Assembly: GCA_050010755.1 (NCBI GenBank)
Contig: JBEKKK010000001.1
Span: forward strand, 1,280,001 to 1,344,000
Length of the DNA stretch: 64,000 nt
Direction: 5' to 3'
Source: Candidatus Bathyarchaeia archaeon
Lineage (GTDB): Archaea > Thermoproteota > Bathyarchaeia > Bathyarchaeales > Bathycorpusculaceae
Part shown: piece by piece, positions 501 to 61,694 of the stretch
Layout of the letters: the number at the start of each line of letters is the position of its first letter
How positions within the stretch are numbered: the stretch's first letter is position 1
Made by a program: the position numbers and the translations under genes
Notes under the pieces: model-generated
Seen by the model: only the letters and a program-made list of their open reading frames with translations
What the model was told of the DNA's origin: nothing
Database searches by the model: none

Positions 501-919
501 CAGGGTTCACCATGAACCAAGAATGTTGACGGCGCACTTTAATTCTTTGCCCAAAATGATCGTGTTAATTTATCGCGGGTGGTTGTTGGTGTTAACAGTC
601 GTCAAGTCAATCCTACGTTCTGTAAATTCGGCTCTGTCAAATCTTTTTCGAGCCATCTCTTGCATGAAAATTCGTCAAACCTATTAGTGAAGCGATACTG
701 AGGTTTTTTCCTTATGCCAATTTTTGAAACTCGCATGGTTCAATCTCTCGGTTTTTCATAACCGTTCTGAACTCTTTGGTCCAAATCCCTAGAGACTTCA
801 ACCCAAGAAGAAACGAATCTGACAGGGCTCAGTTCGCTCGAATCTCGCTACTAGCGCGCGTTAGTCAGTTGAAGAGACGAGATTCTGTTAATTCATCTGC
901 GAGGTTAGCGTCTGTTGCA

Positions 920-1470: not shown

Positions 1471-1587
1471 TCAATCGACGCCGCCAATAAGTGTAAGCGC
1501 TCGCGCGCTATAATTTGCAGATACTATCTGAACTACTATAACTTTTGCTGTCCTAAACAGACTGCGCGCGCTTTACTCTAGGTTCTT

Positions 1588-3728: not shown

Positions 3729-5057
3729 TCACATTTTCTGTTCTTCTAGAAGTCGAAAGTCGCCGCGACTTGCTTCTTTATCAATCACGATTCTTCCGTT
3801 CTTAATAACCTTGTCAACCAGGTTAACTCCGAATCGGTAGCCGAGAAACTTGTGGTTGGGCACGTCGAGGACGATGACATCAGCCTTCTTTCCCAATTCC
3901 AAGCTGCCGACCTCGTTTGCCCGGCTCACGGCGTGAGCGGCGTTAATCGTAGTTGCCGTAATAGCTTCGGCAGGCGTCATTTTCATACAGTGACAGGCGA
4001 GCCCTATGACCAGTTGCTGATTTTCAACCCAGCAGTTCGGGTTAAAATCCGTACCCAAAGCCACGGGGACTCCACAGTCAATCATTTTGCGGGCATCGGC
4101 GTACCGGTTGGTCATTAGGCTGAAAGCTGCCGCGGGCAGCAGAATCGCTGCCACGCCTTTTTCGGCCATCGCCTTGATGCCCTGATCGGAGGAGAAGAGC
4201 AGGTGATCTGCAGAAGCCGCTCCGATGTCTGCCGCGAGTTCTGCCCCGCCCAGGCGGCTCATCTCGTCCGCGTGAACCTTGGGCTTCAGGCCTGAGCTCT
4301 TGCCCGTGCTCAGGATGCGCCTGGTCTGTTCAAGGCCGAACACTCCTTTCTCGCAGAACACGTCACAGAACTCTGCCAGTCCCTTCTCTGCCACTTTGGG
4401 GATCATCTCCTCGGTGACCAGATTAACGTAGCCTTGCAGGTTGTTTTCGAATTCGGGGGGAACAGCATGGGCCCCGAGAAACGTTGGAACTATGTCCACG
4501 CTGTGCAGCTGATTCAACCGTTTGACAACTTCCAACATCTTGAGCTCATCTTTGGTCGTCAGACCGTAGCCGCTCTTGGCTTCAACAGTCGTCGTTCCGT
4601 GCTCCAACATCGCATCCAAGGTTTCGGTGCCATTTTCGACGAGTTTCTCGAAACTCGCCTTTCTGGTCTCTCTGACCGTTTTCAGAATGCCGCCGCCCGC
4701 CTCGAGGATTTCCATGTAAGAGGCACCCGTCATTCGCAATTGAAACTCGTCTTCCCGTGAACCGGCAAACACAAGATGGGTGTGAGGGTCAACGAAGCCG
4801 GGAAGAACGATTTTCCCGTTTACACTCACGACGTTTTCAGCCTTGTAAGTTTTCGTGATGTCCGCGGTTTTTCCCACAGCGACGATTCTTCCATCCTTGA
4901 CTGCCAAGCCTCCGTCGCGCACTATTCCAAGCTCCTGCATCTGCTTTCCAGTGCGCGGCTTCTGAGATTCGCTTGAAAGCGTGACAAGCTCATTCGCGTT
5001 TACGACGAGCAGGTCCAGTTTTTCCCGTGGCCTTGTCTTCACTGATCTTCTACTCAA
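3729..5057 (-). CDS. hutI: Imidazolonepropionase
   Basis: PGFVDPHTH, GGGILKTV, EAKSGYGL, FCDVFCE, KVHADE, ALGTDFNP motifs. Confidence 0.95.
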   Translation of the reverse strand: MSRRSVKTRPREKLDLLVVNANELVTLSSESQKPRTGKQMQELGIVRDGGLAVKDGRIVAVGKTADITKTYKAENVVSVNGKIVLPGFVDPHTHLVFAGSREDEFQLRMTGASYMEILEAGGGILKTVRETRKASFEKLVENGTETLDAMLEHGTTTVEAKSGYGLTTKDELKMLEVVKRLNQLHSVDIVPTFLGAHAVPPEFENNLQGYVNLVTEEMIPKVAEKGLAEFCDVFCEKGVFGLEQTRRILSTGKSSGLKPKVHADEMSRLGGAELAADIGAASADHLLFSSDQGIKAMAEKGVAAILLPAAAFSLMTNRYADARKMIDCGVPVALGTDFNPNCWVENQQLVIGLACHCMKMTPAEAITATTINAAHAVSRANEVGSLELGKKADVIVLDVPNHKFLGYRFGVNLVDKVIKNGRIVIDKEASRGDFRLLEEQKM

Positions 5058-5970: not shown

Positions 5971-6250
5971 TCTTCTCCCACTCAGCTTCTAAAAGCGACG
6001 CAAACAAATAAGTGTATTTCGGGAAAAATCCAGAACCGAGACACAGTAACAAAAGAACGGGCCTACCCGCTAACCTCCAATTAGCTTCTTCTGTTGCTGT
6101 GCTAATGATTTCTTGACTTTTCGTAAACTGAACCCGAGCGCGCGCGTCGCGTGAACCTCGCCCAAACAACGACTGGGAGGCTGACCGTACGAGTTGCAGG
6201 ATTCTCAGAAGATTACCGGGATACTGCGAGAAAGGCCATTGCAAGGGACG

Positions 6251-10530: not shown

Positions 10531-10604
10531 CTTACACATTACGCTGCAACATTACGTCTGACGTAAAGAAAAAAAGGGGAGGGGCCGTTCACAGTTAAAA
10601 TCTT
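10531..10604 (+). repeat. Dispersed repeat copy A
   Basis: GCAACA-TTACGTctgACGTAA-AGAAAAAAAGGGGAGGGG-CCGTTCACAGTT; matches copies B and C. Confidence 0.8.
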
Positions 10605-10829
10605 CCACCCCAGCACGACGTCAAACTCACGAACAGAAAGACGACAGACACTAACAGTCACCGCCAACACGGAGATTTACGCTGCAATATCACAATGCAA
10701 TATCATAATTGACCTCACCATAAACGGAAAAAGTTTAGCCGCAAGGCGCAGTAAAGCCTGTTTAAAACATGGTTTGTCACGAAACAAAATTACAACTAAC
10801 CTCAAACCATAGAGCCGGAGGGGGCGAAA

Positions 10830-10910
10830 GCAACATGGAAAACTTACAAAGCAACATTACATTGCAACATTACATCTTATGTAAAGAAATAAAAGGGAGG
10901 GGCAGACCGC
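10830..10910 (+). repeat. Dispersed repeat copy B
   Basis: GCAACATGGAAAACTTAC-AAAGCAACATTAC-ATTGCAACA-TTACATcttATGTAA-AGAAATAAAAGGGAGGGGG. Confidence 0.8.
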
Positions 10911-21949: not shown

Positions 21950-22034
21950 CACTTTGATTTCCCTCAAACTCGTTTTTCAACGCAGTGCCCTAAAGAAAGA
22001 GTACGTGGCCAACACGGTTCGCAGAGCAGCGCGC

Positions 22035-24725
22035 CTAGAGGAAATGTTCCAGTTTCGTCAGGCCGATTATTTCTTCAAAATCTAGGCCTAGGGCGTCTAA
22101 GACCTGATCAAACGTTGATTGCAGATAGGCGACGTACTTGTCGACATCGACCTCATTCCGTGTTGCGAGTTCGACAGGCTTGACGTGTGGTTCCCTGGTG
22201 ATCTTGACGAAGCTTATCAGGTCGCCTGCCTTCAAGTCTGCCCCTTTTTCTCTCAAGATTTTGGCAGCTTTTACATGTTGTGGCGTTGTCTTTGTGTAGT
22301 GTTCTATGTCCTCCCCCAAGACCACGTTGAAGGCGAGATCGCTCATGCTGTCCCATTCTCGCCTCTTGAGTTGCTGGTAGCACTCCCGCACATTTTCTGC
22401 TATATCCATTTTCGCTTTCTCGAAATCTGCAGGTGTCTTAACAGTCGCCAGATGTGTTTTCATTCTTTCAAACGCCTTTTTTATGAAAATTGGTATATGC
22501 CGTTTCTTGCCTGTAAGTCCTTTTACGTCAACAGTCCCATCTTCTAGCACGCCTAAGTAGTTCTTTTTTCGAGAACTGAACACGGCGTACCTGTAGACCT
22601 TGTCAACGTCGAGACTCATTTTTAGCTCTTGCTCAGTCCAACCTGCCAACTCTTCGATCTGTTGCTTCGAAGGATTTTTCAAGAATAGGCTGTCCGTGTC
22701 TCCATAAAGCACTTGGATATTCAGCTTCTCAGCTTTGCCGAGTATTTGTGTTATAGAGTGTCTCCCGATTGCAGCGGTAGCTTCGGCCACCGGTGGACAA
22801 TAAAGGTCGAAGCTTTCGGCTCCAAATACTCCGTAGCTTGCGTTCAGAATTACTTTTAACGCTCCTTGAGTTACGTTATACCAACTTCTTAGGTCAGGGG
22901 TAAGAGCCTTGTCTTTGGATTTTGGTTTGTACCATTGCACTCGCAAGTCCCTCAGCGAGCCGATGAGAAGACTTTCTAGCGCCCGTTTTTTCCTGCAGAC
23001 CCAGTGGGGCGTGCCAGGAATGACGTTGCTACGGCATTCAGGGTGTTGACACAAGATGGATTGGTAGCCCAAGTTCCAGACCTTTATTATTGAAGGGTAC
23101 AAGCTTGGAAAGTCCATAACGGCCACATTGAAGTGAACTCCGGGAACAGGCTCAACGACAATGGCGCCCTTGTATTTTTTGCCCTTGATGATTGCTTTTG
23201 TCGCGGTCTTGCCCTTCATTGCTAATATTTCTTGAGGGGTTGGAATGAGCATGTTTCTGTGGCGATGTTCTCTTTGGAGGAAGTCTCTTATCCAGCGCGA
23301 CACCCCTTGCCTGCTAACATCCTCCATGGGCATGCTGCTGATTCTCGCGAGTAGAAGAATCAGCTTCATGACCTGTTCGTCTTCGAAACTTGTGAGTTTG
23401 AAAGTTATTTCGGAGTCCCTGAAACAGTATTTGGCCAGTTCAGTGTAAGTTAGCTCTCCCAAGTTTTTGTCAAGCTGAATTTTCTCCAGTCGGATTAGGG
23501 CCCTTCCTACCTCGTTGAGGGTCACGTCCCGGTAGCGGCCGTTAAAAGCGTATATTTGGATTGAGCGATTAAAGAAGAACTTGTAGAGATCAATGTGGAC
23601 TCCATAGCTCAGAAGGCAGGAGCGTTTGCCGATTTCTATTGGAATGTCGCTGTGCTTTATGCCTAGGTTCATGGCGCGGTGGGCTAGATAACGGAGGTCG
23701 AAATCGTCCCCGTTGAACGTTAGCACGAAGGGGTAGTCCCAAAGGGCGTCGAAAACGGCTCTTAAGAGTTTTTCTTCTGTGTCGAAGTATTCGATTGTTA
23801 CGCCCGCAGGCAAGTGTTCTGTTCCTTCGCGGATTTCTTCTCGCTTAAGAACGAGAATTGTCTCAAGCCCGTCAGAGGCGAACATTGACACGCAGATAAC
23901 TTGGTAAGCCGCCTCTCTCGGGTCTGGGACTCGTGTCGGAATGGGCGCCAATACCTCGATATCGATGGCTACGCGGCGGAACTTTGGAGCTGGATATTCC
24001 AGAAGTCTGGCCCATTCTACTATGAACTCGCATTCTTCGCTCGTAGCTTCCTTGAAGACTTCGCGTATTTTTGCCACTGTTCTTTCCGTGTCCTGCAAGG
24101 TTTTCTTAACGAGATTGCTGTCTTTGACCTCGTAAATCATTCCTGGAAACAGGTTTCTGTCGAATATGTAGGATTGATAGTATTTTATCGTTGATTCCCA
24201 TACTTTGATTTGATCTTGGGCTATTGGTGTTTCCGAGACTTTGGGGAAGTCTTCGGGTATTATGTCTCTGATGCATCCTGTTGGGCGTCCGCCGATGGCG
24301 AGAGGATCTTTGGTCAGGATTTTTGTTATTTTCACGTTCTTGTCCAGAAGGGGGTCGAATTTTTCGACGATTTCAAATCGGTCTAGACCCTGGTGCTGGG
24401 TCAAGCGGCTGATTCTTTCAAGCTCGTACCGTGACAGGTTGGTTAGGCAGTATGGCTGGTGTCCGGTGTTGTCGTACCAGAAATAGATCTGTCCCGAGAT
24501 TGGTTCATAGAGTTTCATCACTGCCTTTCCAATTTTTCCGTCGTATGTGGCGGATACAATGTAGGAAGCGGACAAGTTCTGAGGTGCCACTGGAGGAAAA
24601 GAAAAGCGTTTCACTTTTTCATTGGCCCGGCTTCCAGAGATGACAGCGATTCTGGGCTCCGCTTTCTCCTCTTTCACATACGGAGCTTCTTTGCGTGCAA
24701 AGTCTTCTAAGCGTTTCTGTGCCAT
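22035..24725 (-). CDS. polB1: DNA polymerase B1 (TACK-type)
   Basis: YDNTGHQPY N-terminal motif, intact exonuclease motifs (AIDIEV, FNGDDFD, YCFRD), DFPSLYPS, KVILNASYG, YGDTDS, KGLTGKK. Confidence 0.95.
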   Translation of the reverse strand: MAQKRLEDFARKEAPYVKEEKAEPRIAVISGSRANEKVKRFSFPPVAPQNLSASYIVSATYDGKIGKAVMKLYEPISGQIYFWYDNTGHQPYCLTNLSRYELERISRLTQHQGLDRFEIVEKFDPLLDKNVKITKILTKDPLAIGGRPTGCIRDIIPEDFPKVSETPIAQDQIKVWESTIKYYQSYIFDRNLFPGMIYEVKDSNLVKKTLQDTERTVAKIREVFKEATSEECEFIVEWARLLEYPAPKFRRVAIDIEVLAPIPTRVPDPREAAYQVICVSMFASDGLETILVLKREEIREGTEHLPAGVTIEYFDTEEKLLRAVFDALWDYPFVLTFNGDDFDLRYLAHRAMNLGIKHSDIPIEIGKRSCLLSYGVHIDLYKFFFNRSIQIYAFNGRYRDVTLNEVGRALIRLEKIQLDKNLGELTYTELAKYCFRDSEITFKLTSFEDEQVMKLILLLARISSMPMEDVSRQGVSRWIRDFLQREHRHRNMLIPTPQEILAMKGKTATKAIIKGKKYKGAIVVEPVPGVHFNVAVMDFPSLYPSIIKVWNLGYQSILCQHPECRSNVIPGTPHWVCRKKRALESLLIGSLRDLRVQWYKPKSKDKALTPDLRSWYNVTQGALKVILNASYGVFGAESFDLYCPPVAEATAAIGRHSITQILGKAEKLNIQVLYGDTDSLFLKNPSKQQIEELAGWTEQELKMSLDVDKVYRYAVFSSRKKNYLGVLEDGTVDVKGLTGKKRHIPIFIKKAFERMKTHLATVKTPADFEKAKMDIAENVRECYQQLKRREWDSMSDLAFNVVLGEDIEHYTKTTPQHVKAAKILREKGADLKAGDLISFVKITREPHVKPVELATRNEVDVDKYVAYLQSTFDQVLDALGLDFEEIIGLTKLEHFL

Positions 24726-27390: not shown

Positions 27391-27488
27391 AAGATGTCAA
27401 CTGTGAACGGTGTCCCCCCTCCCCTTTTTTTCTTTACATCTAATGTAATGTTGCTTTGTAATGTTGCTTTGTAAGTTTCCCATGTTGC
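27391..27488 (-). repeat. Dispersed repeat copy C (inverted relative to A and B)
   Basis: Reverse complement: GCAACATGGGAAACTTAC-AAAGCAACATTAC-AAAGCAACA-TTACATtagATGTAA-AGAAAAAAAGGGGAGGGGGGACA-CCGTTCACAGTTGACATCTT. Confidence 0.85.
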
Positions 27489-27729
27489 GTGTGCGCGTTC
27501 CGAAAAAGGCTAAACTTGGAAAGATATTGCATTAGTTGCCAGGAACTTCGGAAGACACATCTAGCACAATTCACCACCTAACGTGGGTTGCCATCCACAA
27601 CCGTTGTTTTCTTAGCGCTCGCGTTTTAATAACTGGCCATGTTCAGTTGGCTGTTTTTTCGACTCCAGTCTGGTCAATTGAAAAAGACCATGAACTTTCT
27701 CGCTTCGACAAAGAAAGAGCGGCCGCGTC

Positions 27730-29751: not shown

Positions 29752-30753
29752 ACACCTTTCGGGGCCAACCCTCCCCCAACATTATTGTTATTACGTCGTT
29801 CTAATTAAACGATACTTTCGAACAGCAAGTTAGCGCATCTTGAGCAAGTACCCAAGATGCTTCGTGATGAACCGTGGGGAACTTTTTGACTGATCAGAGC
29901 TTTTGTTTAACCGAAAAGACAGAAAGAGGTCGCTTATAACAATGAACGTGTCTGCACATGCTTGCGCGAAGTTTTGCCGGTGTAACTACTGGGAGAAAGT
30001 TCCAGATTTCGGACACGGGTTCCACGAAGATAGGGTCATGGTGAGTGTTGTTCGAAGTTTCTGGTTGCTAGCGCGATATCTCTAGCGTACGCTTCTGTAT
30101 AGAACGCGCGTCTGCGTGGGAGCGTTTTTCGCTGAGCAACATTGCAAATCTCATGCAGTAAGATGATTGCGAATCAACAATGCATAGCGAAATCGATGTT
30201 TAAGAGTGTTAGAACAGGGCATGTGTCGATTTTTGGCATATTGTCATTTTTGCAATTTCCTATATACGTTTTGAAGCGAATCTGACTGTTGCTAGTGATG
30301 CGGTAGTATGAGCCAAAAACTTTCCAGTAAGAAGTTCTTGGAATTGTTTGATGTCTTATGGCAGGAAGGACCAAGAACAGAATACAAGAACCCTGACAGT
30401 TGGGCCGGCTATTAGCTGAGGATTAGCGCGCGCTCTCGCATTGGTTCAGAAAACATGCATAAGAGACTCTGCGCGTGCTGGCAAAGCGCCGCGTGCGCCA
30501 TCAAAATCACAATAACGTTACTACTGTAAAGTCGTTTCACTTGTTGAGCGCGCACTAACAGTAGAATGGCCATATGACGGAAAATGATGCGGCTCACGTG
30601 TCCAATATTGATTGTGAATCCAGTATGTTAATATGCTGCGTTCTCGAGTCTATCGGAGTAAGCAAGATTTTTGCCCATAGTATCGTGAAACCGGATTGTT
30701 CCGTTTTTGCTTTTGGCATATCTGCTAGAAGAAAAGAATTCGAGGTGAAAAAC

Positions 30754-30840
30754 ATGCAAGACACTAAGGAAATGGAAGAACGAATTAGGCGAACCGAAAT
30801 TTGGATGTATCGGTCTAAGACGCACGAAATGCAACGATAG
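30754..30840 (+). CDS. Putative microprotein (28 aa)
   Basis: MQDTKEMEERIRRTEIWMYRSKTHEMQR; GAGGTGA SD upstream; T-tract downstream. Confidence 0.5.
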   Translation: MQDTKEMEERIRRTEIWMYRSKTHEMQR

Positions 30841-31007
30841 TAGATTTCCTATCTTTTTTCCTTGAAAGGTATCTCTGTTTAACAATCACTCCAATCCGAA
30901 TCAAGAATTTTGTTATGGCACGCGCCAGTTGAGTCGGTTTTTGCTGCGCACTTCTAATATACTGGATAATTGAATATTATCATGCAGGGCACGCGGGGTT
31001 TGGGAGG

Positions 31008-31199
31008 ATGAGCTACAAGGAGGAAATGGAAAAAGGAGTCAAAGAGCGCTCTTTGAGTTATGAGATGTGGTTGAGACACGTCAAAAACTTGACTGGGCAA
31101 GAAATCTTTGAAATTAAGAATGAGGTCAACCGAGACCCCGCCAAGAACCGTGAACTGAAGGAAGAATACGAAAAGTGGAAGGCCAGCGTGCCTAAATAG
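31008..31199 (+). CDS. Small helical hypothetical protein (63 aa)
   Basis: GGAGG SD immediately upstream; protein-like charged composition. Confidence 0.6.
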   Translation: MSYKEEMEKGVKERSLSYEMWLRHVKNLTGQEIFEIKNEVNRDPAKNRELKEEYEKWKASVPK

Positions 31200-31265
31200 T
31201 CGTCAATTAACGCACGCCAAAATTATTAAAGCACTATACGCATATCATACCTTCTGGGAATATAA

Positions 31266-31355
31266 ATGCCGAAAAAAGAAAAACCGTTAACTAAGAAAGA
31301 GCGAGACGAGAAAAGGAAAAAACATAAGGAGAAGCAAAGCAAGACACAGAGTTAA
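31266..31355 (+). CDS. Putative Lys-rich microprotein (29 aa)
   Basis: MPKKEKPLTKKERDEKRKKHKEKQSKTQS; upstream AAAATTATTAAA promoter-like element; downstream T-tract. Confidence 0.5.
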   Translation: MPKKEKPLTKKERDEKRKKHKEKQSKTQS

Positions 31356-31527
31356 GCCCTAAGAAAGAGCTTTGCAAAACCCTTTTTCTCTTTTTACTTT
31401 AAAGTTGGCTTCTTTAATGAAATGAGAGAAAGACGCTTCAGTTTGGGATATTGTCGGCTTCCTCCGTTAATGCGAAAGAAATATGTTTTAAGCTTGTTCA
31501 TCTATAGTTGATTTGTAGCTGAGAGTT

Positions 31528-31656
31528 ATGCCGAGTGTATTGAAACGTAAACAAAAGAATGCTCAAATCGCACAACAGAAAAAGATGGAACGGGATAAAG
31601 AAGCTAAAAAGAAACAGTTGAGACAGCAACTTCCTGCCAAGGGCAAGAAACGTTAA
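31528..31656 (+). CDS. Putative Lys/Gln-rich microprotein (42 aa)
   Basis: MPSVLKRKQKNAQIAQQKKMERDKEAKKKQLRQQLPAKGKKR; TTTTAAG TATA-like element upstream. Confidence 0.5.
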   Translation: MPSVLKRKQKNAQIAQQKKMERDKEAKKKQLRQQLPAKGKKR

Positions 31657-31878
31657 AGCCACTAAAAGGAGCTATGGTAACCATCTAGAAGCTTATGCCT
31701 AGCGCGCGCTGGAAGATGGATTAATTTATGGATACCGTGATGACCATTTGACAAGGCTTCAAGCGATACTTCTATTACGGAGATTGAATAAATTCGGTCT
31801 AGTTGAAGGATTCAAGGGAACTCAAAGTCATTTTGGAAAATCAACCATCAAGTTTGTAGGATAGGAAGGTGAGAAAAA

Positions 31879-32016
31879 ATGGGCGAGAGAAGATACAACA
31901 GAAGTAAAAGCTACAAATGTCCATCATGTAGTCTAGAATTCAAGAGTGAGGGAGTACCTGGACACTGTCCACGATGTCACGCTGTAATTGAAATCAAAAG
32001 AAACAATAGGAGATAA
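31879..32016 (+). CDS. Small Zn-finger protein (45 aa)
   Basis: MGERRYNRSKSYKCPSCSLEFKSEGVPGHCPRCHAVIEIKRNNRR; GGAAGGTGA SD. Confidence 0.65.
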   Translation: MGERRYNRSKSYKCPSCSLEFKSEGVPGHCPRCHAVIEIKRNNRR

Positions 32017-32142
32017 AAAGAAACCCCGCGCGTGTTCGACTTTAGTGATTCTAGACATAGTGTTTATAAGAAGCGATGCGAACTGTGGACGAAGCGTGTA
32101 AGAAGCAATTTTTGCACAGCGACATAGAAGGAGTTGAGAGAG

Positions 32143-32292
32143 TTGACGTATGAGAGAAAAGAGATGCACAAGGCAGTTTGCGCTGAATGCGGAAAGGAAT
32201 GCGAAGTACCATTCAAGCCCGATGGCAGCAGACCCGTATACTGCCGAGAGTGTTACGCGAAAAGAGCACCGCCACGAAGAAATCGATTTTAG
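32143..32292 (+). CDS. CxxC-x17-CxxC domain protein (49 aa)
   Basis: TTG start: MTYERKEMHKAVCAECGKECEVPFKPDGSRPVYCRECYAKRAPPRRNRF; TTTATAAG promoter element, GGAG SD, T-rich terminator. Confidence 0.9.
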   Translation: MTYERKEMHKAVCAECGKECEVPFKPDGSRPVYCRECYAKRAPPRRNRF

Positions 32293-32320
32293 ATTAAGCC
32301 AAGTGCTCTAATCTGAGATT

Positions 32321-32347
32321 GGTTTTCCAGTTTCTTTATTCTTTTTT
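32321..32347 (+). terminator. Oligo-T terminator-like tract
   Basis: GGTTTTCCAGTTTCTTTATTCTTTTTT after the CxxC gene, ending at a TAGCGCGCGC motif. Confidence 0.5.
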
Positions 32348-32535
32348 AGCGCGCGCCGATGTTGATGGGAAAGATGGTGCGGACTGATTTTCTGTAATAT
32401 AATATGAGGAAGAGCAGAGGAGCAACACCGCTATTTCTTAGTCTCATTTTGGAACTAAAAGTCTTGATGGCACAATAGATCATGGCCAAATGGTGGCTCG
32501 AGCCTCACAAACATTGCGCGCTAGCGCGGTAGTAG

Positions 32536-32667
32536 GAATTTGAAGAAGACGACAAATATTGCACTGCTACAGTTGGCTACATTGAAGATGCTGGAAAACT
32601 GCTAGAAGCGGGATTTGAATACGTTTGCGACCATGGAAGTATTCTGCTATTCAGAAAAAGGAAGTGA
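32536..32667 (+). pseudogene. C-terminal remnant of an archaeal tyrosine integrase
   Basis: EFEEDDKYCTATVGYIEDAGKLLEAGFEYVCDHGSILLFRKRK* resembles the LxEAGFEYV...FRKRK tail I recall from Bathyarchaeia/Nitrososphaeria integrases; preceded by TAG TAG with no start codon. Confidence 0.7.
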
Positions 32668-32795
32668 AATAAAGCCTTACCCCAAACGCACGCTCTGGGT
32701 TCTGGTCCATCGTCGGGTTATTAGTCTTCGTGGTGCCGGTGGGTGATGATTTGATTTCTTGCGGTATTGTTTCTTGAGGTTCTGTGGAGTCTGCG

Positions 32796-33467
32796 TCAGA
32801 TGGTTTTCTCTGAAATTTCGTCTGATGGTTTCAGATAGGAAGATGGTTTGGAGCCATATTGGCAAAGGCTGGATAGTCTTCGCTGTAGCTCTTGGATACG
32901 TTCTTTCATAGTCATGACAGGCATTTTGACTCCGAGTGCCTCCCAAGTGTGGGAAGCGTCACCTAGATTTCCATTGACAAGTTTGGTCAAACAACTGATA
33001 GCGGCTTCCTCATTTCCTGTTAGAGATATTGCTCTGATATCGGCAGCTATTTCTTGCTCTTTAGCGATGGCAGGCAAAGGGAGAGGGATGTTGAATAGAT
33101 AGAAAAACGTTTTTGCCCCATTTAGAATGGCGTGAGTATCGCTTTTGCAGTTTCTTATGAGTGCATCGATGAATCCATCACTGGCACGAGGTACAACATG
33201 ATTAAGATAGATGTGGGAAGTTTCATGTGCCAATATGAACTTTTGTTCATCGTAGGTTAGAGTTTTGTTCAAATAATCCTTGTTTACGGACACGTTTCCG
33301 AAGGCTACGTTGACTTTCTTATTCACGACAGGAATCGTGTCGTTAATATATAGTCCAATAGCCTTTGCTATGTCGTCCCGACAATTAGTGACAATAATAA
33401 CTCGTAGGTCAACATTCAAAGACTCTAAAAACTGATTGACTTCAATTTGCATTTCTTGTATCTGCAT
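32796..33467 (-). CDS. M48-like zinc metalloprotease
   Basis: FILAHETSH (HExxH), EQEIAAD third ligand, ERI tail. Confidence 0.8.
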   Translation of the reverse strand: MQIQEMQIEVNQFLESLNVDLRVIIVTNCRDDIAKAIGLYINDTIPVVNKKVNVAFGNVSVNKDYLNKTLTYDEQKFILAHETSHIYLNHVVPRASDGFIDALIRNCKSDTHAILNGAKTFFYLFNIPLPLPAIAKEQEIAADIRAISLTGNEEAAISCLTKLVNGNLGDASHTWEALGVKMPVMTMKERIQELQRRLSSLCQYGSKPSSYLKPSDEISEKTI

Positions 33468-33867
33468 TGAGACCTCTGGTAGTTACATTGTAAACTTGAT
33501 AAACCTTCTGATGGATCAGCTTCTAGCTCATTATCGCCCGCGCTTGACTTCACCAAAAACCTTGGATTCAAGGAAGACAATGTCACAAGACTAGGTCTAA
33601 AACTAAAATGGTAGCGCGCGCTTCTCTTTTCGGCATTAGCTAGAAGCGCGCCCATTAATCGCCTATAGCAGCATAAAGAGGGTTCGTCCTTGGGTAGCGA
33701 GCTTTAACTCAACGGTTTCTCATAGGACTTAGCTGGTGAAAGTCGAAATGATCATGGCGTCTATGATGACATCACGTCAGTATGAAGGGATTTAAGTTTG
33801 GTCCTTTTTTCCCAGGATGATTTGACATTAAGTTGATTCTGAGGCGCCACAACACTATCTTCCAAAG

Positions 33868-33963
33868 TAGGCTTACAATGAGCTTGTAGAGCAACTGAAA
33901 GAAGAGAAAAAACTCGGCGAAGGAATAAAGAGAAATTTGGAGAGTATTGGATGTAGCGTCTGA
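33868..33963 (+). pseudogene. Remnant resembling the C-terminus of type I R-M methyltransferase HsdM
   Basis: RLT / (1-nt shift) / ELVEQLKEEKKLGEGIKRNLESIGCSV*, matching the recalled HsdM tail pattern RLTxELxEQxxExxxLxxxIKxNLxxIG. Confidence 0.5.
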
Positions 33964-33977
33964 GGAAGAGAGCGCGC

Positions 33978-34328
33978 GTGTTTAACTTTGCGTCAGATAG
34001 CTTTTGCTCTCAACTTTCGTCTGATGGAAGCACAAAACTCTTATCATACCAACAGCTTCACGGGGGGGGTTGCTGGAAGCGATTAATCACGGATAACGAA
34101 TCTTTCTTGTGCCCAAAATGCAATAAAAAGACGTTTTCTGTTGGAAACGCAGATTCTATATGGCAAGAAGGAATATCGAATCCAGAATTGATAGATTTGA
34201 TAAAGAACCTAATGGCTGAGGGAAAAATGAAGGAATATCGCTTCTGGCGATGCAAACATTGCAACATCTACTATCAGACTGATCTGAATGTGAAATTTCT
34301 GAAGCGATTTCCGTTACGAGAACGGTAG
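33978..34328 (+). CDS. Hypothetical double-CxxC Zn-finger protein (start uncertain)
   Basis: CPKC...CKHC; flanked by 10-bp inverted repeats GAGAGCGCGC. Confidence 0.55.
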   Translation: MFNFASDSFCSQLSSDGSTKLLSYQQLHGGGCWKRLITDNESFLCPKCNKKTFSVGNADSIWQEGISNPELIDLIKNLMAEGKMKEYRFWRCKHCNIYYQTDLNVKFLKRFPLRER

Positions 34329-34545
34329 TGCGCGCTCTCGTAGAAATGTTTGGTGCGCTTGCTTTGGGGGTAATGTTTTGTCGCGCGCACTTATGCTTTT
34401 GTTTTTGACTAATTAATCGCACTTTTGGGCACATACGTTTATATGTCATGTTGAGTGTGTTAGGTACAAGAAAAGTTTGCCGTTGGCTCGTAACAGTTTT
34501 TATGTGTACTGGAAATGGCTTGCTTTTTTTATCAGGCACGAGAAT

Positions 34546-34845
34546 ATGAATAGGATGACAAAGATGCTTATTGGAAACCGTAACAAGTTGCAGATAATGG
34601 CAGAGATTCTAGGGAAGTTGCGGGAACCAACCAGTAAAACGAATATTATGTTTCATTGTAACATGAACTCCATGCAGTCAGGTCAATATCTAAACCTGAT
34701 GGGATCAAGTGATCTTGTTCGAAAGGATGATCTGGCTGGAAAAGTCACTTATAAGAGAACAGAAACTGGCAGAAAGTTTCTGGAAGCATATAACAGGATG
34801 ATCCTTCTAATTGATCCAAGCATTTCTGCACCCTTTCTAGCCTGA
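34546..34845 (+). CDS. Archaeal winged-helix regulator (HTH_45-like)
   Basis: RNKLQIMAEIL...KTNIMFHCNMN...YLNLM...YKRTETGRKFL. Confidence 0.85.
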   Translation: MNRMTKMLIGNRNKLQIMAEILGKLREPTSKTNIMFHCNMNSMQSGQYLNLMGSSDLVRKDDLAGKVTYKRTETGRKFLEAYNRMILLIDPSISAPFLA

Positions 34846-34879
34846 CGATAGAAAAGGAATTGTCCAGATAGAGGTGATA

Positions 34880-35053
34880 TTGTTGCTGAGTATGAAGGAC
34901 GTTAGGAAGTGCAGAAACTCATTAGAACTGAACAATTTCATAGAAAAATACATTGCAGAGAGGAACTCGCCAAACGAGAGTTTCAACAGCACATATTGGA
35001 CTCTGTTCGAAGAGTGGAAAAAAACACTTAAGGATAAACCTTTACGAGCGTAA
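34880..35053 (+). CDS. Small hypothetical protein (57 aa)
   Basis: GAGGTGA SD then TTG: MLLSMKDVRKCRNSLELNNFIEKYIAERNSPNESFNSTYWTLFEEWKKTLKDKPLRA. Confidence 0.5.
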   Translation: MLLSMKDVRKCRNSLELNNFIEKYIAERNSPNESFNSTYWTLFEEWKKTLKDKPLRA

Positions 35054-35090
35054 AGATAGATCGATTACGCCCGATTACGTTTGACGAGAG

Positions 35091-35145
35091 TGTGAGGTTA
35101 AATGGGATGGTGGAGCATTAACCTTATTAACGATACTGTAAATGC
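35091..35145 (+). repeat. 55-bp direct repeat copy 1 (contains TATA-like CTTATTAA)
   Basis: 49/55 identical to 36740-36794 by eye. Confidence 0.85.
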
Positions 35146-35326
35146 GTTTAAAATTGAGCGTGCTTATTGCAAGAGCCACAAGCATTAATTTACTCGAAAC
35201 CCACGAGAGAGTTTTTGCGGATCAAAAATAGTTAATGCAGGGCCAAAAAGAAGCGCTGTGCAGGTTCGTTTGAGCACGACAAAATTAATAAGTGAAGACC
35301 ATTCTCTCCAGAATAGTGGTTCTTGA

Positions 35327-36157
35327 ATGGATCCGGTGACGTTGGGAATAATACTTTTCGTTCTTTTTATCGTGCTGATAATTCTTCTGAGCGGCATTAG
35401 AGTCGTGAAAGAGTGGGAAAGGGCTCCGCTACTCACTTTAGGCAGATACAGGGGACTCAAAGGTCCAGGAATAATTTACGTGCCACCAATCATAAGCCGC
35501 GTGCCTTTTGTAATATCAATGAGGCTGCAGGTGGTCTCATTCAAGACTGAGCAGACTCTCACCAAGGACAACGTGCCCGTGGTTGTGGACGCCGTGATGT
35601 ACTTCCAGCCCGTTGACTTGCAGAAAGTGGTGCTGGGCGCGGAAAGTTTCAGAGATGCCACCAACTTTGCCGCACAGACGACGCTGAGAGAGGTTATCGG
35701 GCAGGCAAGCTTCGATGAAGTGCTTACTGAAAGAGAAAAAGTCGGCTCAATCGCTCGAGGAATAATCGATTCGAAGACAGAGGCTTGGGGAATAAAGGTG
35801 ACGTCGGTTGAAATCAGGGACGTCGCCATTCCTCAAGTGCTCCAAGATGCGATGTCCAGACAAGCACAGGCCGAACGTGAGAGAAGAGCGAGAGTCACAT
35901 TGGCGACAGCGGAATTTGAAGCGGCACAGAAAATGATTGAAGCCGCAAACCTCTACGAAAAAAGCCACGAAGCCTTAAGACTGAGGTGGATGAACATCCT
36001 CTACGAAATTGGACAGCAATCCAAAACAAACACGATTATGCTAGTTCCATCGTCGATGCCAGAAGCAGGATGGCCACCAACCGGCATGTATGGCTTCAAA
36101 GAAATCGCCAAAGACACAAGCAAGAAAGATACTAAGACGGAGAATCAGAAAACCTAG
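35327..36157 (+). CDS. SPFH/band-7 (stomatin-like) protein
   Basis: N-terminal TM, LKGPG, LTKDNVPV, AQTTLREVIG, WGIKVTSVEIRDV, QAQAERERRA. Confidence 0.93.
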   Translation: MDPVTLGIILFVLFIVLIILLSGIRVVKEWERAPLLTLGRYRGLKGPGIIYVPPIISRVPFVISMRLQVVSFKTEQTLTKDNVPVVVDAVMYFQPVDLQKVVLGAESFRDATNFAAQTTLREVIGQASFDEVLTEREKVGSIARGIIDSKTEAWGIKVTSVEIRDVAIPQVLQDAMSRQAQAERERRARVTLATAEFEAAQKMIEAANLYEKSHEALRLRWMNILYEIGQQSKTNTIMLVPSSMPEAGWPPTGMYGFKEIAKDTSKKDTKTENQKT

Positions 36158-36739: not shown

Positions 36740-36794
36740 TGTGAGGTTAAATGGGACAGTGGAACATTAAACTTATTAACGATACCGTGAATGC
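36740..36794 (+). repeat. 55-bp direct repeat copy 2 (likely promoter of the 36809 gene)
   Basis: Direct comparison with 35091-35145. Confidence 0.85.
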
Positions 36795-36808
36795 ATTACG
36801 CTTAAAGG

Positions 36809-44774: not shown

Positions 44775-45241
44775 AGCTTTAGGTTTGTCTCGCAAATAGC
44801 GTGCGCATATCCAAGATCTGAAGAGCTCAAACTTGCTTATCAGAAAGTGGTTTTCACGTAGCGCGCGCAATTCCTGGTGCCCCTCATCGGAATGCTGCTG
44901 TTCCTTTATTACGCACGGGCATGTTAAGACTGGCCTCCAAAACTCTGCACTTCTTCGACAAATGCAAGCGCGCTAAAGAGCTGGACTAAAAAACTTGGAA
45001 ATTACGACAAGAGGGCCACCGCCACTAACCGATATCTCCATGTTGAATGGGCGATAAGGAATCTTTTCGGCGAGCGTTCTCTCTGGGAACTTCTCGTCGA
45101 GGGAAGGGCAGACAGAGATGGAGTGTGTCTCGCGCGCACATGATGAACTAGCTCGACAAATCAAAACAGCAGGTTTGAAATTCGGTGCCGGGCAGTGTTG
45201 CGAAAAAAGCTTATTTTAGCAAAAGAGGGCGTAGTTGGGTT

Positions 45242-45420
45242 TGGTGGGGCCGGCCGGATTTGAACCGACGACCTACGGGTTTCTTCTCGGTATAACTGCT
45301 CCCGAATTTCTTCATTCCCTTTCGGGTCGGATTGTAATTGGGTAAACACATGGGCTACCTTGCGGTTTCTCATGGGTTGATTCTGGAGCCCGTCGTCATA
45401 CCTGCCTAGACTACGACCCC
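45242..45420 (-). tRNA. tRNA-Trp(CCA) with a 102-nt intron at 37/38 (intron 45281-45382); encoded CCA end
   Basis: Acceptor stem GGGGTCG/CGGCCCC-ACCA, anticodon arm ACGGG-CTCCAG|A-CCCGT, T arm GTCGG-TTCAAAT-CCGGC. Confidence 0.92.
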
Positions 45421-45554: not shown

Positions 45555-45680
45555 GGGGTTTGCCGGTCATAGGGCGTGGGTCCCACCTGATCCCATACCG
45601 AACTCAGAAGTTAAACCACGTTCCGTTTCCGGTTATAGTGTGGTCTTCGGCCATGTGAACCCGGGAAAGCTGGTAGCCCC
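45555..45680 (+). rRNA. rrf: 5S rRNA (stand-alone)
   Basis: GGTCATAG...CACCTGATCCCATACCGAACTCAGAAGTTAA; terminal helix GGGGTT/AGCCCC. Confidence 0.93.
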
Positions 45681-59257: not shown

Positions 59258-59558
59258 GATGAGGTCCCCGTTTCAAATAATCGATACTGAACGGAAACAG
59301 CTTTTAAGGCTTGGCGTGCGCTTCAAAATAAAGATCAAGGCTGCAAGGGCGCCCAGACAGCAGAACCCTGCAGCCCTCGGGCCGTTCACTTCAGTGAGGT
59401 GCAATTGGCCCTACGGATGAGGCAAGCAGCATAGTGGATAAAAAGCTTGTCTAAAAGCTGAACAACACAACAACACAAGCATACGCGCGCAAAAAGCCCT
59501 CAAGTGAGCAACAAAATCGTTTCCTACCTGTCAGGATGTGCTTCGTCGGTTTTCTGCG

Positions 59559-61694
59559 TTACTGGTGTTTTTTCAGTAGGTCTACAACGTCGGGGAAGTC
59601 TATGCCCAGTGCTTTTGCTTTTTGTATGGTTGGGACTCCGTTTTTGTTCCATCCGCGTCTTGCGTAGACTGTGTCCTTCAGTTTTTCGTACTCTGCCTCG
59701 CGGTATTTTCGCAGTGCTGCCATTTTCTCTTCTGTGGACTTGCCTTGTGGGTCGTAGCCGATTTTTTCTTTCAGTTGTTTGTCGTAGCGTTCGGCTCGGC
59801 TTTCGTACTCTTCTTTTGTTACGGGTCCGACTGAGCGGTAGGGCAGTGCGTCGTGTTCTCGTGTGCCGAAGCCCATTCTGAGGTTGAAGATGCGTTGGAG
59901 GTTGTACACTTTTTCGCTCATGAAGATTATGTCTTCTGGCGTGATCTTCTTGCCGGTGACGGCTGAATAGAATCGTGCGTAGTTGTCTACGTGGGCCATG
60001 ACTTTGGCGGGTTCTTTTGTGTTCTTGTTGTCGACTGGGACGACGTCGTTCCATGGGAGTTTGCACAGTCCGTTGAGGCCGAACCACGTGCGGAACATGG
60101 GGAACCAGTGTAGGTTTTCGGCCTTCTGTTCAAAGGTGGGCATGAGGTTGTGAACCATGTCTAGGAATATCAGCCACGCCTCGTCGTGTTGTGGGCCTTT
60201 CAGGGCAAGTCCGTAGCCGCCCTGCTGGGCGAGCGACTCTTTCGTGACGTATTCCGAGAACTCTAGCCCCTTTGCTTCCATGCCGATGTCCTGCAGCACT
60301 CGTGGGTCGGCGCCGTATTCGTCTGCGAAGAGTTTCTTCATCTGTCTGATGCCTTTGCCGACTATTGTGCCGAAGCCCTCGCCCCTTGCCATTTGGTGCA
60401 CGAGTTCCAAGGATGCCTCTTTGTTTCCAAAATTCAGCTCCAGGCCGCCGGTCGCTCTCTTGTCTATCAAGCCCATCTCGTAGCATTCCATGGCGAAAGC
60501 CGTTGCCGTGCCGACTGAAATGGTGTCGAGGCCGTACACGTCGCAGTAGAAGTTCATCTCGATGACGTGGTCAGGGTCGTATATTCCGCAGTTGCTGCCC
60601 ACTCCGGCGATTGTTTCGTATTCTGGGCCGCTTACGAAGACTTTTTGTCCCTTGTAGGGCCCCGTCTTGGGCTCGAAGTCTTTGACGCCGTGAGAGCAGG
60701 CCAGTGCACAGCCCATCCAGCAGCCGTCGAAGCCCTTGTGGAATTTTTTCCTGTAGACTTCCTTGCCCAACTCTGCAGCCCTCGAGTCAGTGCCAAACCT
60801 GAAATTGTTCACGGGAAGAAGGTCAAAATCGTTCATTATCGTTACAAGATGTGTAGTTCCGATAGTTGCCATCTCGTTCTGTTTCGCATCGAGGCTTCGA
60901 ATCTCTTGTCCGTGAGCCGTGCCCACCTGCTTGACCATCTCGGCATCTGCTGGCCCGTTGGTCTCCACTGATATCCCGCCTGAGTACTTTACCGCGAGGG
61001 CTTTCACCCTCTTGTCTCGGAACACGGTGCCGATTCCGCCTCTTCCCGCTTGCTTAAACCTGTGAATCTTCCGTCCTGCGTCAAACCATGAGAAGTTCAG
61101 GCAGCCGAAAAACGTGTGTTCAGCTCCAGGCCCTGACGACACTACTGAGATGCATTGTCCGCTGTCCGGCGCGTACTTCTTGGCCAAAAAGTCTGTGATG
61201 AGATGAGCCTCCGAAGGCATTGAAGACGCATCTTCAACTCGGACGAGGCCCTGATCACCGTCAATGAGTATGACCACTTCAGACTTGGCCTTTCCCTGAA
61301 TCTCGATGGCGTCCCAACCTGCAAACTTCAGGTACGGGCCAAAGTAGCCGCCTACGTTTGAGTCTACCACGCTGCCAGTTAGGGGGGAGATTGAAACTGC
61401 GATGCTCTTTCCGCTACCGGGATATACTGGGGTTCCGCCCAGCGGACCGCAGGCGATGCACACCTCGTTCTCGGGATCGTCCCATTTAACTATGCGATCT
61501 TTCGGCAATGCGTTCCACAGGAGCCAAAGGTCGAAGCCTCGGCCGCCCGTGAAGGTTTCTCTCATCTCCTTGCTCACGGGTTTGCCGGCTATGCGCATGT
61601 TAGAAAGATCTATGTACAAGGTTCTGTTGTTGTAGCCTCTCTCAACCTTGCCTAGTTCGTATTTGAATTCGGCAATCGTCAAGTTGACATCCAC
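59559..61694 (-). CDS. aor: Aldehyde:ferredoxin oxidoreductase family (W/Mo-pterin)
   Basis: GGRG, SPLTG, DSNVGG, AGRGGIG, CWMGCALAC, GPEYET, GLDTIS, KGLE, GLCK, RGW. Confidence 0.92.
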   Translation of the reverse strand: MDVNLTIAEFKYELGKVERGYNNRTLYIDLSNMRIAGKPVSKEMRETFTGGRGFDLWLLWNALPKDRIVKWDDPENEVCIACGPLGGTPVYPGSGKSIAVSISPLTGSVVDSNVGGYFGPYLKFAGWDAIEIQGKAKSEVVILIDGDQGLVRVEDASSMPSEAHLITDFLAKKYAPDSGQCISVVSSGPGAEHTFFGCLNFSWFDAGRKIHRFKQAGRGGIGTVFRDKRVKALAVKYSGGISVETNGPADAEMVKQVGTAHGQEIRSLDAKQNEMATIGTTHLVTIMNDFDLLPVNNFRFGTDSRAAELGKEVYRKKFHKGFDGCWMGCALACSHGVKDFEPKTGPYKGQKVFVSGPEYETIAGVGSNCGIYDPDHVIEMNFYCDVYGLDTISVGTATAFAMECYEMGLIDKRATGGLELNFGNKEASLELVHQMARGEGFGTIVGKGIRQMKKLFADEYGADPRVLQDIGMEAKGLEFSEYVTKESLAQQGGYGLALKGPQHDEAWLIFLDMVHNLMPTFEQKAENLHWFPMFRTWFGLNGLCKLPWNDVVPVDNKNTKEPAKVMAHVDNYARFYSAVTGKKITPEDIIFMSEKVYNLQRIFNLRMGFGTREHDALPYRSVGPVTKEEYESRAERYDKQLKEKIGYDPQGKSTEEKMAALRKYREAEYEKLKDTVYARRGWNKNGVPTIQKAKALGIDFPDVVDLLKKHQ

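Follow-up and report, generated by a model that had tools for sequence, protein, structure and literature searches.

Several families of short repeats can be compared with the element described here, a GC-rich palindrome of 12 bp which recurs in a 64-kb window, i.e., the whole stretch of DNA that was analysed (contig JBEKKK010000001.1, positions 1,280,001 to 1,344,000, of a Candidatus Bathyarchaeia archaeon), part of an archaeal chromosome with housekeeping genes. The attC sites of integrons are bulged hairpins of 55-140 nt with RYYYAAC/GTTRRRY ends, and the DNA uptake sequences (DUS) and uptake signal sequences (USS) of Neisseria and Haemophilus often stand as inverted pairs behind genes. The repetitive extragenic palindromes (REPs) of bacteria are hot spots of rearrangement and insertion. 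One survey places REPs mostly downstream of genes and notes that their termini often supply TAG stops (PMC3733652), and a more recent paper on a tool mentions REP-like palindromes in archaea in general terms (PMC12306157). The highly iterated palindrome HIP1 of cyanobacteria (GCGATCGC), whose function is debated, is linked to orphan methyltransferases (PMC4390886) and described as abundant within genes too (PMC5861425). Literature searches, which also missed a paper on archaeal integrons, returned no published description of the present motif and no paper linking Bathyarchaeota to integrons and attC.

The window was compared with 80 loci (1.36 Mb) of Bathyarchaeia and related archaea, collected via the Band-7 gene that adjoins a gene-poor island at 29.8-35.3 kb. 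The source genome is not among them, the best match having 94% protein identity. The window and loci L001-L008 form a close set, or clade, of 215 kb, and the remainder amounts to 1.21 Mb. A first-pass annotation of the window had read the motif as the joint of a cassette or acquisition system of accessory DNA, integron-like in outcome, and this interpretation is partly supported. We tentatively propose, with a probability of about 0.45, that the motif is a REP-like iterated palindrome, peculiar to one sub-clade of Bathyarchaeia and placed at transcription-unit edges, which would serve as a preferred point for DNA to break and join. A closer parallel is found in bacterial REP repeats than in a new integron-like cassette system. 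As it lacks several of the characters of REPs, integrons, MITEs (miniature inverted-repeat transposable elements), HIP1 and split attachment (att) sites, we file it as a short intergenic iterated palindrome, member of no named family.

With REPs, bacterial interspersed mosaic elements (BIMEs) and REP doublets forming hairpins (REPINs) it shares a short GC-rich palindromic sequence, an intergenic position, restriction to a lineage, a preference for positions 3′ of genes and in convergent gaps, and the occurrence of single, double or paired copies. Furthermore, it is extragenic, lies mostly downstream of genes and can supply a TAG stop: its TAG end is the stop codon of the neighbouring gene at 34326 in the window, 14026 in L003 and 18339 in L005 (the TBP gene), as PMC3733652 describes for REPs. 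The GTAG/CGTC tag of REPs is not conserved, for TAG is in the consensus but a G precedes it in only 9 of 29 copies of the 9-mer TAGCGCGCG (2/7 in the window, 7/22 in the loci), near chance. In addition, the host is an archaeon, and no RAYT-type (Y1; REP-associated tyrosine) transposase was found in the 64 kb and five 20-kb loci.

Like attC sites, copies of the motif stand immediately behind the stop of a gene-sized unit or overlap with it, and they enclose single genes that form a chain. Unlike them, they have neither a bulged hairpin of 55-140 nt nor RYYYAAC/GTTRRRY ends nor a single orientation; the window contains no IntI, only a C-terminal integrase remnant of 43 codons, and the genes are not promoterless and co-oriented (an M48-like gene is on the opposite strand, and a Zn-ribbon gene starts ~70-110 nt after the motif). 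Similarly, DUS and USS are 9-12-mers far above expectation, but they are also common inside genes, and their role is in the uptake of DNA by naturally competent bacteria. In contrast to MITEs, the segments between copies have no terminal inverted repeats longer than the core and no similar interiors.

The repeat unit and its lineage

The 9-mer TAGCGCGCG matches exactly at 852, 1502 (minus strand), 30424, 31700, 32347, 33612 and 44859, as the first-pass annotation had listed, and these seven copies compare with a mean of 0.35 and a maximum of 2 in 100 dinucleotide-preserving shuffles of the window. GCGCGC has 29 overlapping matches against 16.8 expected (shuffle maximum, 27); all 12 of the further cores reported earlier are present, and three unlisted ones (5437, 29055, 47895) fall within long open reading frames (ORFs). 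The enrichment was equally borne out by an unbiased scan of all 8-, 9- and 10-mers of the window against a third-order Markov model, in which the GCGCGCGC / AGCGCGCGC / AGCGCGCGCT family is the top over-represented word at each length. The statement that all copies lie in AT-rich non-coding patches held for the island, where GC is 0.40-0.45, and failed elsewhere: the 1-kb bins around 852, 1502 and 44859 have a GC of 0.48-0.49, and sites 852 and 1502 are inside long ORFs, although these ORFs have no protein-family support.

A search with mismatches, together with the relatives, defines the full unit as a 12-bp palindrome, TAGCGCGCGCTA, or TA-(GC)3-4-TA (core form TA-GCGCGCGC-TA), the usual copy having one half perfect and the other degenerate. 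In the close set there are 77 GC runs in 215 kb, with core lengths of 6 (29 runs), 7 (17), 8 (25), 9 (5) and 10 (1). A occupies position -1 in 60% of half-sites, and TA flanks at least one side in 23 of 52 sites (TA background, 4.4%) and both sides in only five. A longer repeat around the 9-mer was ruled out: the sequences on either side of the copies cannot be aligned and none of the repeat families extends over the sites, and the unit is therefore short. No known RNA family scored above chance in 29.7-35.4 kb (best E 3.2).

The motif is restricted to the closest relatives of the window, one sub-clade of Bathyarchaeia. Across the 80 loci TAGCGCGCG has 22 copies against 2.96 expected, of which 14 are in L001, L002, L003, L005 and L008, and 67 loci have none; exact (GC)4 cores of 8 nt number 25 in the 215 kb of the close set and 11 in the other 1.21 Mb. 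Moreover, enrichment is largely a matter of intergenic DNA: in the close set the observed-to-expected ratio (O/E) of GCGCGCGC is 21.3 between genes and 2.3 in coding sequences, and that of TAGCGCGC is 16.6 and 1.9. The coding O/E of GCGCGC is 0.84, and three control GC palindromes are not enriched between genes (intergenic O/E 0.5-0.6).

Since the core is self-complementary, any two copies make an inverted pair, and the inverted pairs described in the first-pass annotation are largely automatic. Ten segments were folded as DNA and compared with shuffles, and three exceeded them: 30418-30486 (z -2.3) and 33606-33658 (z -4.0) of the window and 10845-10880 of L001 (z -3.4). Hence, of the five proposed window pairs that were folded, 30425/30479 and 33612/33651 stood, while 1492/1576, 44859/44975 and 32347/32523 did not exceed shuffles (z -0.6, -0.15 and -0.2); the sixth, 33968/34339, encloses a gene. 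Two sites open hairpins of 40-56 nt, and the remaining sites none. A structured RNA at 32340-32535 (196 nt, folded as RNA) was ruled out with a z of -0.2. Inward complementarity past the core averages 2.94 of 10 positions in 32 pairs, against 2.45 at random, none reaching 6/10, and no second copy of any bracketed segment was found in 1.43 Mb; therefore the segments are neither MITEs, a candidate thus rejected for want of terminal inverted repeats beyond the core and of recurring interiors, nor attC-like sites.

Gene edges, junctions and integrase remnants

The motif is placed at the edges of transcription units, right after stops or just upstream of promoters. In the close set, 50 of 61 site clusters are in intergenic DNA, which makes up 21% of the total, at densities of 2.60/kb in convergent, 1.35/kb in tandem and 0.97/kb in divergent gaps. 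A stop codon lies within 10 nt of the site in 8/61 cases, against 4% for random placement in the same gaps, whereas a start codon follows within 25 nt in only 1/53, against 7%. Orientation relative to genes shows no consistent direction. In relatives the motif flanks the core genes for TBP, Alba, enolase, eRF1, ribosomal L38e and UbiD, and thus is not restricted to accessory DNA. The TBP gene of L005 has one copy fused to its stop and a second directly upstream of the TATA-like TTTTATAAA, presumably where the TFB-recognition element (BRE) of an archaeal promoter would be expected, and orthologous GNAT genes of L003 and L004 each have a copy downstream in surroundings of different bases. The motif is densest in gene-poor, low-GC DNA carrying integrase remnants; most transcription units of the window have no copy, the sites being clustered in three gene-poor patches.

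Copies also coincide with junctions between genomes. DNA homology of the window with L001-L008 is confined to the Band-7 gene and ~75 bp upstream of it, a unit which includes a conserved TTAATAA region. On the left, homology with L001 starts at a motif copy in both (window GAAGCGCTGTGCAGG, L001 GAGCGCGCTGTGTAG); on the right it ends with the stop codon, 3-25 nt beyond which both L001 and L002 carry a copy. A Zn-ribbon module common to L001 and L002, with 91-97% identity, begins inside the motif (GCGCGCGCAA), leftward of which the DNA is unrelated. In L001 a tRNA is followed by a site, an ORF, a second site, 650 bp, a third site, the Zn-ribbon gene, a fourth site, Band-7 and a double site, and the double arrangement GCGCTAGCGCGG of window 32514-32531 recurs in L002, with a related TA-sharing double copy in L001 (10853-10872). 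In L002 the gene for NfeD separates the Zn-ribbon gene from Band-7, and in L003, L004, L005 and L008 it lies directly upstream of Band-7; L001 has in its place 235 bp with the motif-like palindromes TAGAGCGCACGCTCA and GAGAGAGAGCGCGCTG at the ends, at a position where L002-L005 and L008 have no site.

When all homology blocks of at least 80% identity between different loci were considered, 11 of the 34 block-end clusters of the close set lay within 30 nt of a site, compared with 23 of 380 ordinary gene ends (Fisher p 1.7e-5). A site is present in 0/17 syntenic gaps, 15/35 gaps at synteny breaks and 8/73 gaps without homologue, figures that are only suggestive. Thus far, the proposal that the motif marks junctions finds backing in the Band-7 edge, the Zn-ribbon module, the block ends and, as described below, the integrase remnants.

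The integrase tail noted in the first-pass annotation is real. Positions 32536-32664, starting 5 nt after the double palindrome at 32514-32531, match the last 43 amino acids of PF00589 integrases of ~300 residues with 65-79% identity. A tblastn search with four intact integrases against 81 sequences (the window and the 80 loci) retrieved only three such remnants, in the window, at 952-743 of L003 and at 522-635 of L028, and all three begin 0-15 nt from a GC run, for which the random-point chances are 0.013, 0.026 and 0.004. They start at different residues (~229 in L003, ~267 in the window, ~270 in L028), and the intact integrases read ...YTQLVEFEEDD... at the point of the window and L028 truncations, where GCGCGC cannot be encoded; therefore the motif was brought to the junction and not inherited with the gene. 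It is not the attachment site of the integrases from which the adjoining remnants derive. An att site of a split-gene integrase of the type known from Sulfolobus spindle-shaped viruses (SSV) was ruled out by the variable start residues, the absence of the core from the intact gene and the lack of any N-terminal integrase part in the 81 sequences, and an element of L003 bounded by another repeat speaks against it as well. Searches for a virus or plasmid carrying this integrase gave only generic integrases at 23-28% identity.

Truncated copies of this integrase seem to be common in Bathyarchaeia genomes and not only artefacts of contig ends: the protein database has 1159 short relatives (30-168 aa) of the ~300-aa family of P0001, several of them on contigs of at least 100 kb. 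A blastx comparison of clade intergenic DNA with the long ORFs of the analysed sequences, a small database, gave 11 fragments, and only the window integrase tail and one 27-aa duplicate in L004 are within 40 nt of a site. The candidate HsdM-like tail of 30 aa, which ends at 33963 and 4 nt short of GAGAGCGCGCG, a very short query, had no plasmid match by tblastn and no NCBIfam family match.

Features of the window

Table 1. Copies of the motif and neighbouring genes in the 64-kb window
Feature	Position	Strand	Basis
Motif copy TAGCGCGCGTTA, 1 mismatch to the 12-bp palindrome	852..863	+	sequence search
Motif copy, TAGCGCGCGA on the minus strand	1501..1510	-	sequence search
GCGCGCGCT core, 15 nt past the stop of the NosD-like gene (1588-3621, minus)	1564..1573	.	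core search
AGCGCGCGCG core within an unsupported 96-aa ORF	6137..6146	.	core search
AGCGCGCC core joined to the TAG stop of the minus-strand family-B DNA polymerase gene, convergent gap	22028..22037	.	
Motif copy TAGCGCGCGCTC opening a 56-nt imperfect hairpin that closes at GCGCGTGCT	30424..30482	+	fold z -2.3
Degenerate copy GAGCGCGCACTA	30546..30557	.	
Motif copy TAGCGCGCGCTG, 44 nt past a small basic ORF, 168 nt before the Zn-ribbon gene at 31879	31700..31711	+	
Two small zinc-finger genes (31879-32016; 32134-32292), single unit between two motif copies	31879..32292	+	
Motif copy TAGCGCGCGCCG, 55 nt past the treble-clef gene stop	32347..32358	+	
Double copy TTGCGCGC-TA-GCGCGGTA	32514..32531	.	
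Tyrosine-recombinase gene remnant, last 43 codons and stop, 5 nt after the double motif	32536..32667	+	
M48-like metallopeptidase gene, strand opposite to other island genes	32796..33467	-	
Motif copy TAGCGCGCGCTT opening a hairpin with a 10-bp stem that closes at AGAAGCGCGC	33612..33655	+	fold z -4.0
GAGAGCGCGCG copy, left edge of the Zn-ribbon gene unit	33968..33979	.	
Small Zn-ribbon gene, start approximate; TAG stop = first three bases of the next motif copy	34089..34328	+	
Copy TAGTGCGCGCTC; TAG = Zn-ribbon gene stop	34326..34337	.	
CGCGCGC core	34382..34389	.	
Winged-helix protein gene (HTH_45; Sso10a-family-like, below curated cutoff)	34477..34845	+	
Decayed copy GAAGCGCTGTGCAGG, left edge of the Band-7 module; aligns with L001 GAGCGCGCTGTGTAG, leftward DNA unrelated	35250..35264	.	
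SPFH/Band-7 gene; sole DNA in 25-46 kb in common with the closest relatives; usual NfeD partner gene absent	35327..36157	+	
Motif copy TAGCGCGCGCAA	44859..44870	+	
Copy AAGCGCGCTA	44966..44975	.	
CGCGCGC core, ~107 nt past the 3′ end of the intron-bearing tRNA	45131..45138	.	
CGCGCGC core, 68 nt past the stop of the aldehyde:ferredoxin oxidoreductase gene (59559-61694, minus)	59484..59491	.	

The gene-poor island (Table 1) contains three small zinc-finger genes, the M48-like peptidase, the winged-helix protein and the integrase remnant of 43 codons, and its four full motif copies are all on the plus strand, with spacings of 1276, 647 and 1265 bp. The zinc-finger gene at 32134-32292 encodes a treble clef (CxxC-x17-CxxC). 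The reading frame 33957-34325, which runs from motif to motif, was considered as a gene fragment and rejected, because homologues of the small Zn-ribbon protein are complete at 79-98 aa and align over nearly their full length. These homologues begin ~20-45 codons into the long frame, the annotated start being uncertain as a result, and a run of G (cacgggggggg) is present at 34061-34069, inside the frame upstream of the conserved part.

At the right of the island, the Band-7/SPFH gene has no upstream NfeD protease partner in the window (35327-36157) and in L001 (10001-10834), and the NfeD-Band-7 pair is kept in L002, L003, L004, L005 and L008. A direct repeat of 58 nt, 88% identical (35091-35148 / 36740-36797), flanks the Band-7 gene together with two small minus-strand genes, one of which encodes a YwbE-family protein. 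Within it lies an inverted repeat (AAGGTTAA / TTAACCTC); the 58-nt element may stem from the duplication of a control region or be a former attachment site.

Archaeal tRNA-Trp introns are known to carry C/D-box guide RNAs. The window has a tRNA gene with an intron of 106 nt in the anticodon loop at 45245-45420 (minus; Rfam 44.3 bits, missed by ARAGORN), whose anticodon is CCA (Trp) by reading of the alignment and parts of which match L041 at 90%; a 5S rRNA gene follows at 45559-45678. An element integrated at the att site of this tRNA, or of a tRNA of L001, was ruled out, as no tRNA 11-mer has a direct repeat.

The NosD-like beta-helix gene (1588-3621, minus) accounts, with tandem repeats of 66-69 nt, for most direct-repeat families of the window. 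A second repeat family, rich in GCAACATTAC / GTAATGT, is present at 10536-10585, 10816-10902 and 27416-27502; the 87-nt arm at 10.8 kb is 84% complementary to that at 27.4 kb, and the 10-mer has 5 copies against 0.09 expected. Similar GTAATGT runs adjoin motif copies at 16870-17000 of L003. In the same locus, a 3.5-kb segment with genes of unknown family carries one of the integrase remnants at its left edge. Missing from the syntenic L004 and bounded by a direct repeat of 15-17 bp, AAAAACCTT(T/A)CCTAT, at 699-715 / 4224-4241, it has the appearance of an integrated element, now decayed, that had an attachment site of its own.

Competing explanations and their meaning

How could a palindrome of 12 bp act as a preferred break-and-join point? 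The motif would be read in double-stranded form by a dimeric sequence-specific protein, rather than as an RNA or DNA hairpin, a view suggested by the conserved outer TA, the preference for an exact 8-bp core, the combination of a perfect and a degenerate half and the scarcity of stable folds. The protein that reads it may cut or join DNA itself, or recruit a factor that does. Copies would then be preferred ends for the insertion, deletion and replacement of gene-sized modules, and they would persist only where they are harmless, between units.

Several observations weigh against this proposal. No transposase, RAYT or intact recombinase was detected in the 53 ORFs of the window, 83 frames of the island and 123 ORFs from five relatives that were searched. 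The motif is a perfect palindrome without loop, in place of the 20-40 nt imperfect stem-loop of REPs, and the other seven of the ten folded segments are no different from shuffles, where a typical REP folds. The sole insertion with clean edges, that of L003 relative to L004, uses a different direct repeat, and the motif copies are inside the segment. Among 120 short integrase relatives, no motif-encoded residues (SAR/ARA/RAR) occur at the junctions: 98 reach the C-terminus, 80 of these with a leader of less than 5 aa, and none of the 22 with a leader of at least 4 aa has a signal at the junction; the one flagged ARA (P0096) is in the integrase-homologous part, where P0001 also reads NARA, and P0006 (MFFSARY...) is an anecdote at the protein level only. 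Homology blocks tend to end at gene edges, where the motif also sits, which inflates the coincidence; the control of ordinary gene ends reduces this edge bias but does not remove it, and block ends are not independent, each pair being counted in both genomes. Syntenic gaps, in turn, are short (1906 bp in total) and partly represent one gap seen in several loci. Finally, all counts are limited by a close set that was delimited only after they had been seen, by loci that each surround one gene, Band-7, and by gene calls that are the longest ORFs of at least 100 aa.

The main rival, somewhat unlikely in our view, is a passive boundary signal: the motif would be a functional site at unit edges, e.g., one that binds a transcription factor or an insulator or chromatin protein, or one that signals a 3′ end, and the rearrangements that survive would simply fall at those edges. 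Core genes flanked on both sides, such as TBP in L005, the copy behind the GNAT orthologues of L003 and L004, the depletion of sites within 25 nt upstream of starts and the palindromic form with its conserved outer TA, such as dimeric DNA-binding proteins recognise, all agree with it. Yet most units of the window have no motif, the sites being in three gene-poor patches, and copies are densest between convergent genes, a place in which promoters are not expected. Nor does a boundary signal explain why three non-functional integrase remnants cut at different residues each start at a copy. In addition, the segment replacing NfeD in L001 has motif-like palindromes at both ends, and L002-L005 and L008 have no site there. 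Quite unlikely, in turn, is the footprint of a cut-and-paste element that targets TA, in the manner of IS630 and Tc1/mariner, which prefer such targets: TA-GCGC|GCGC-TA would represent two abutted ends between a duplicated TA, the DNA between two copies would be movable, and an element that inserts into the TA of a stop codon would restore TAG. This would account for the palindrome, the flanking TA, the variable core length and the double copies that share a TA, as well as for TAG stops that the motif supplies and for gene truncations at arbitrary residues. However, no transposase was found in the window or the five relatives' loci, no element with longer terminal repeats or a repeated interior was found, TA is on both sides in only 5/52 sites, and no clean pair of filled and empty sites was found.

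A dedicated cassette system, in which a recombinase acts on motif copies and cassettes are captured and shuffled in arrays, receives equally little credence from us. It is true that copies divide the island into a chain of segments, with four full copies on one strand, that sites and genes alternate in L001 from the tRNA to Band-7, and that single genes are exactly bracketed, e.g., the Zn-ribbon gene at ~34089-34328 and TBP in L005. Nevertheless, no full-length recombinase was found in the window, which has the 43-codon remnant only, or in the loci of five relatives; there are no core sites and nothing of attC-like length or structure; the genes are on both strands, apparently with their own upstream regions, and without common orientation to the motif; core genes are flanked as well; and the clean insertion of L003 against L004 employs another direct repeat. 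Moreover, since intact integrase genes (...YTQLVEFEEDD...) have no motif at the truncation points, recombination from motif to motif cannot have made the truncations. The integron-like part of the first-pass annotation is thus not sustained, and its alternative, a HIP1-like palindrome that promotes rearrangement, comes closer to the evidence, with the difference that the motif is nearly confined to intergenic DNA. In its strict form, a palindrome kept by a methyltransferase and a repair bias with rearrangement as a side effect only, this last explanation is highly improbable. Both are GC-rich octamer palindromes, strongly over-represented in one lineage, and HIP1 is tied to orphan methyltransferases (PMC4390886); but the O/E of the motif is ~2 in coding against 21 in intergenic DNA, while HIP1 is described as abundant in genes (PMC5861425), and neither the window nor the five loci yielded a DNA cytosine methyltransferase domain. 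Transposon footprint, cassette system and HIP1-like palindrome are all less likely than the boundary signal.

A bolder version of the break-and-join proposal, unlikely as it stands, is an archaeal mobility of DNA with palindromic ends, in which TA-(GC)4-TA would be read by an enzyme as a generic end and any gene-sized segment between copies could be excised, inserted or swapped between genomes. Because the site is palindromic, one sequence could serve as both left and right end. If this were true, chains of single-gene modules would be built and genes at the landing sites would be truncated.

Bathyarchaeia are abundant and uncultured, and little is known of how they exchange and reshuffle their genes. 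A palindrome that marks modules provides a handle for genome-wide counts, for the prediction of breakpoints and for the search of the protein that reads it. If it were only a mark of unit edges, it would still be a candidate regulatory or chromatin signal specific to a clade; if it were an active end for DNA movement, it would constitute a compact new route of modular gene transfer in archaea.

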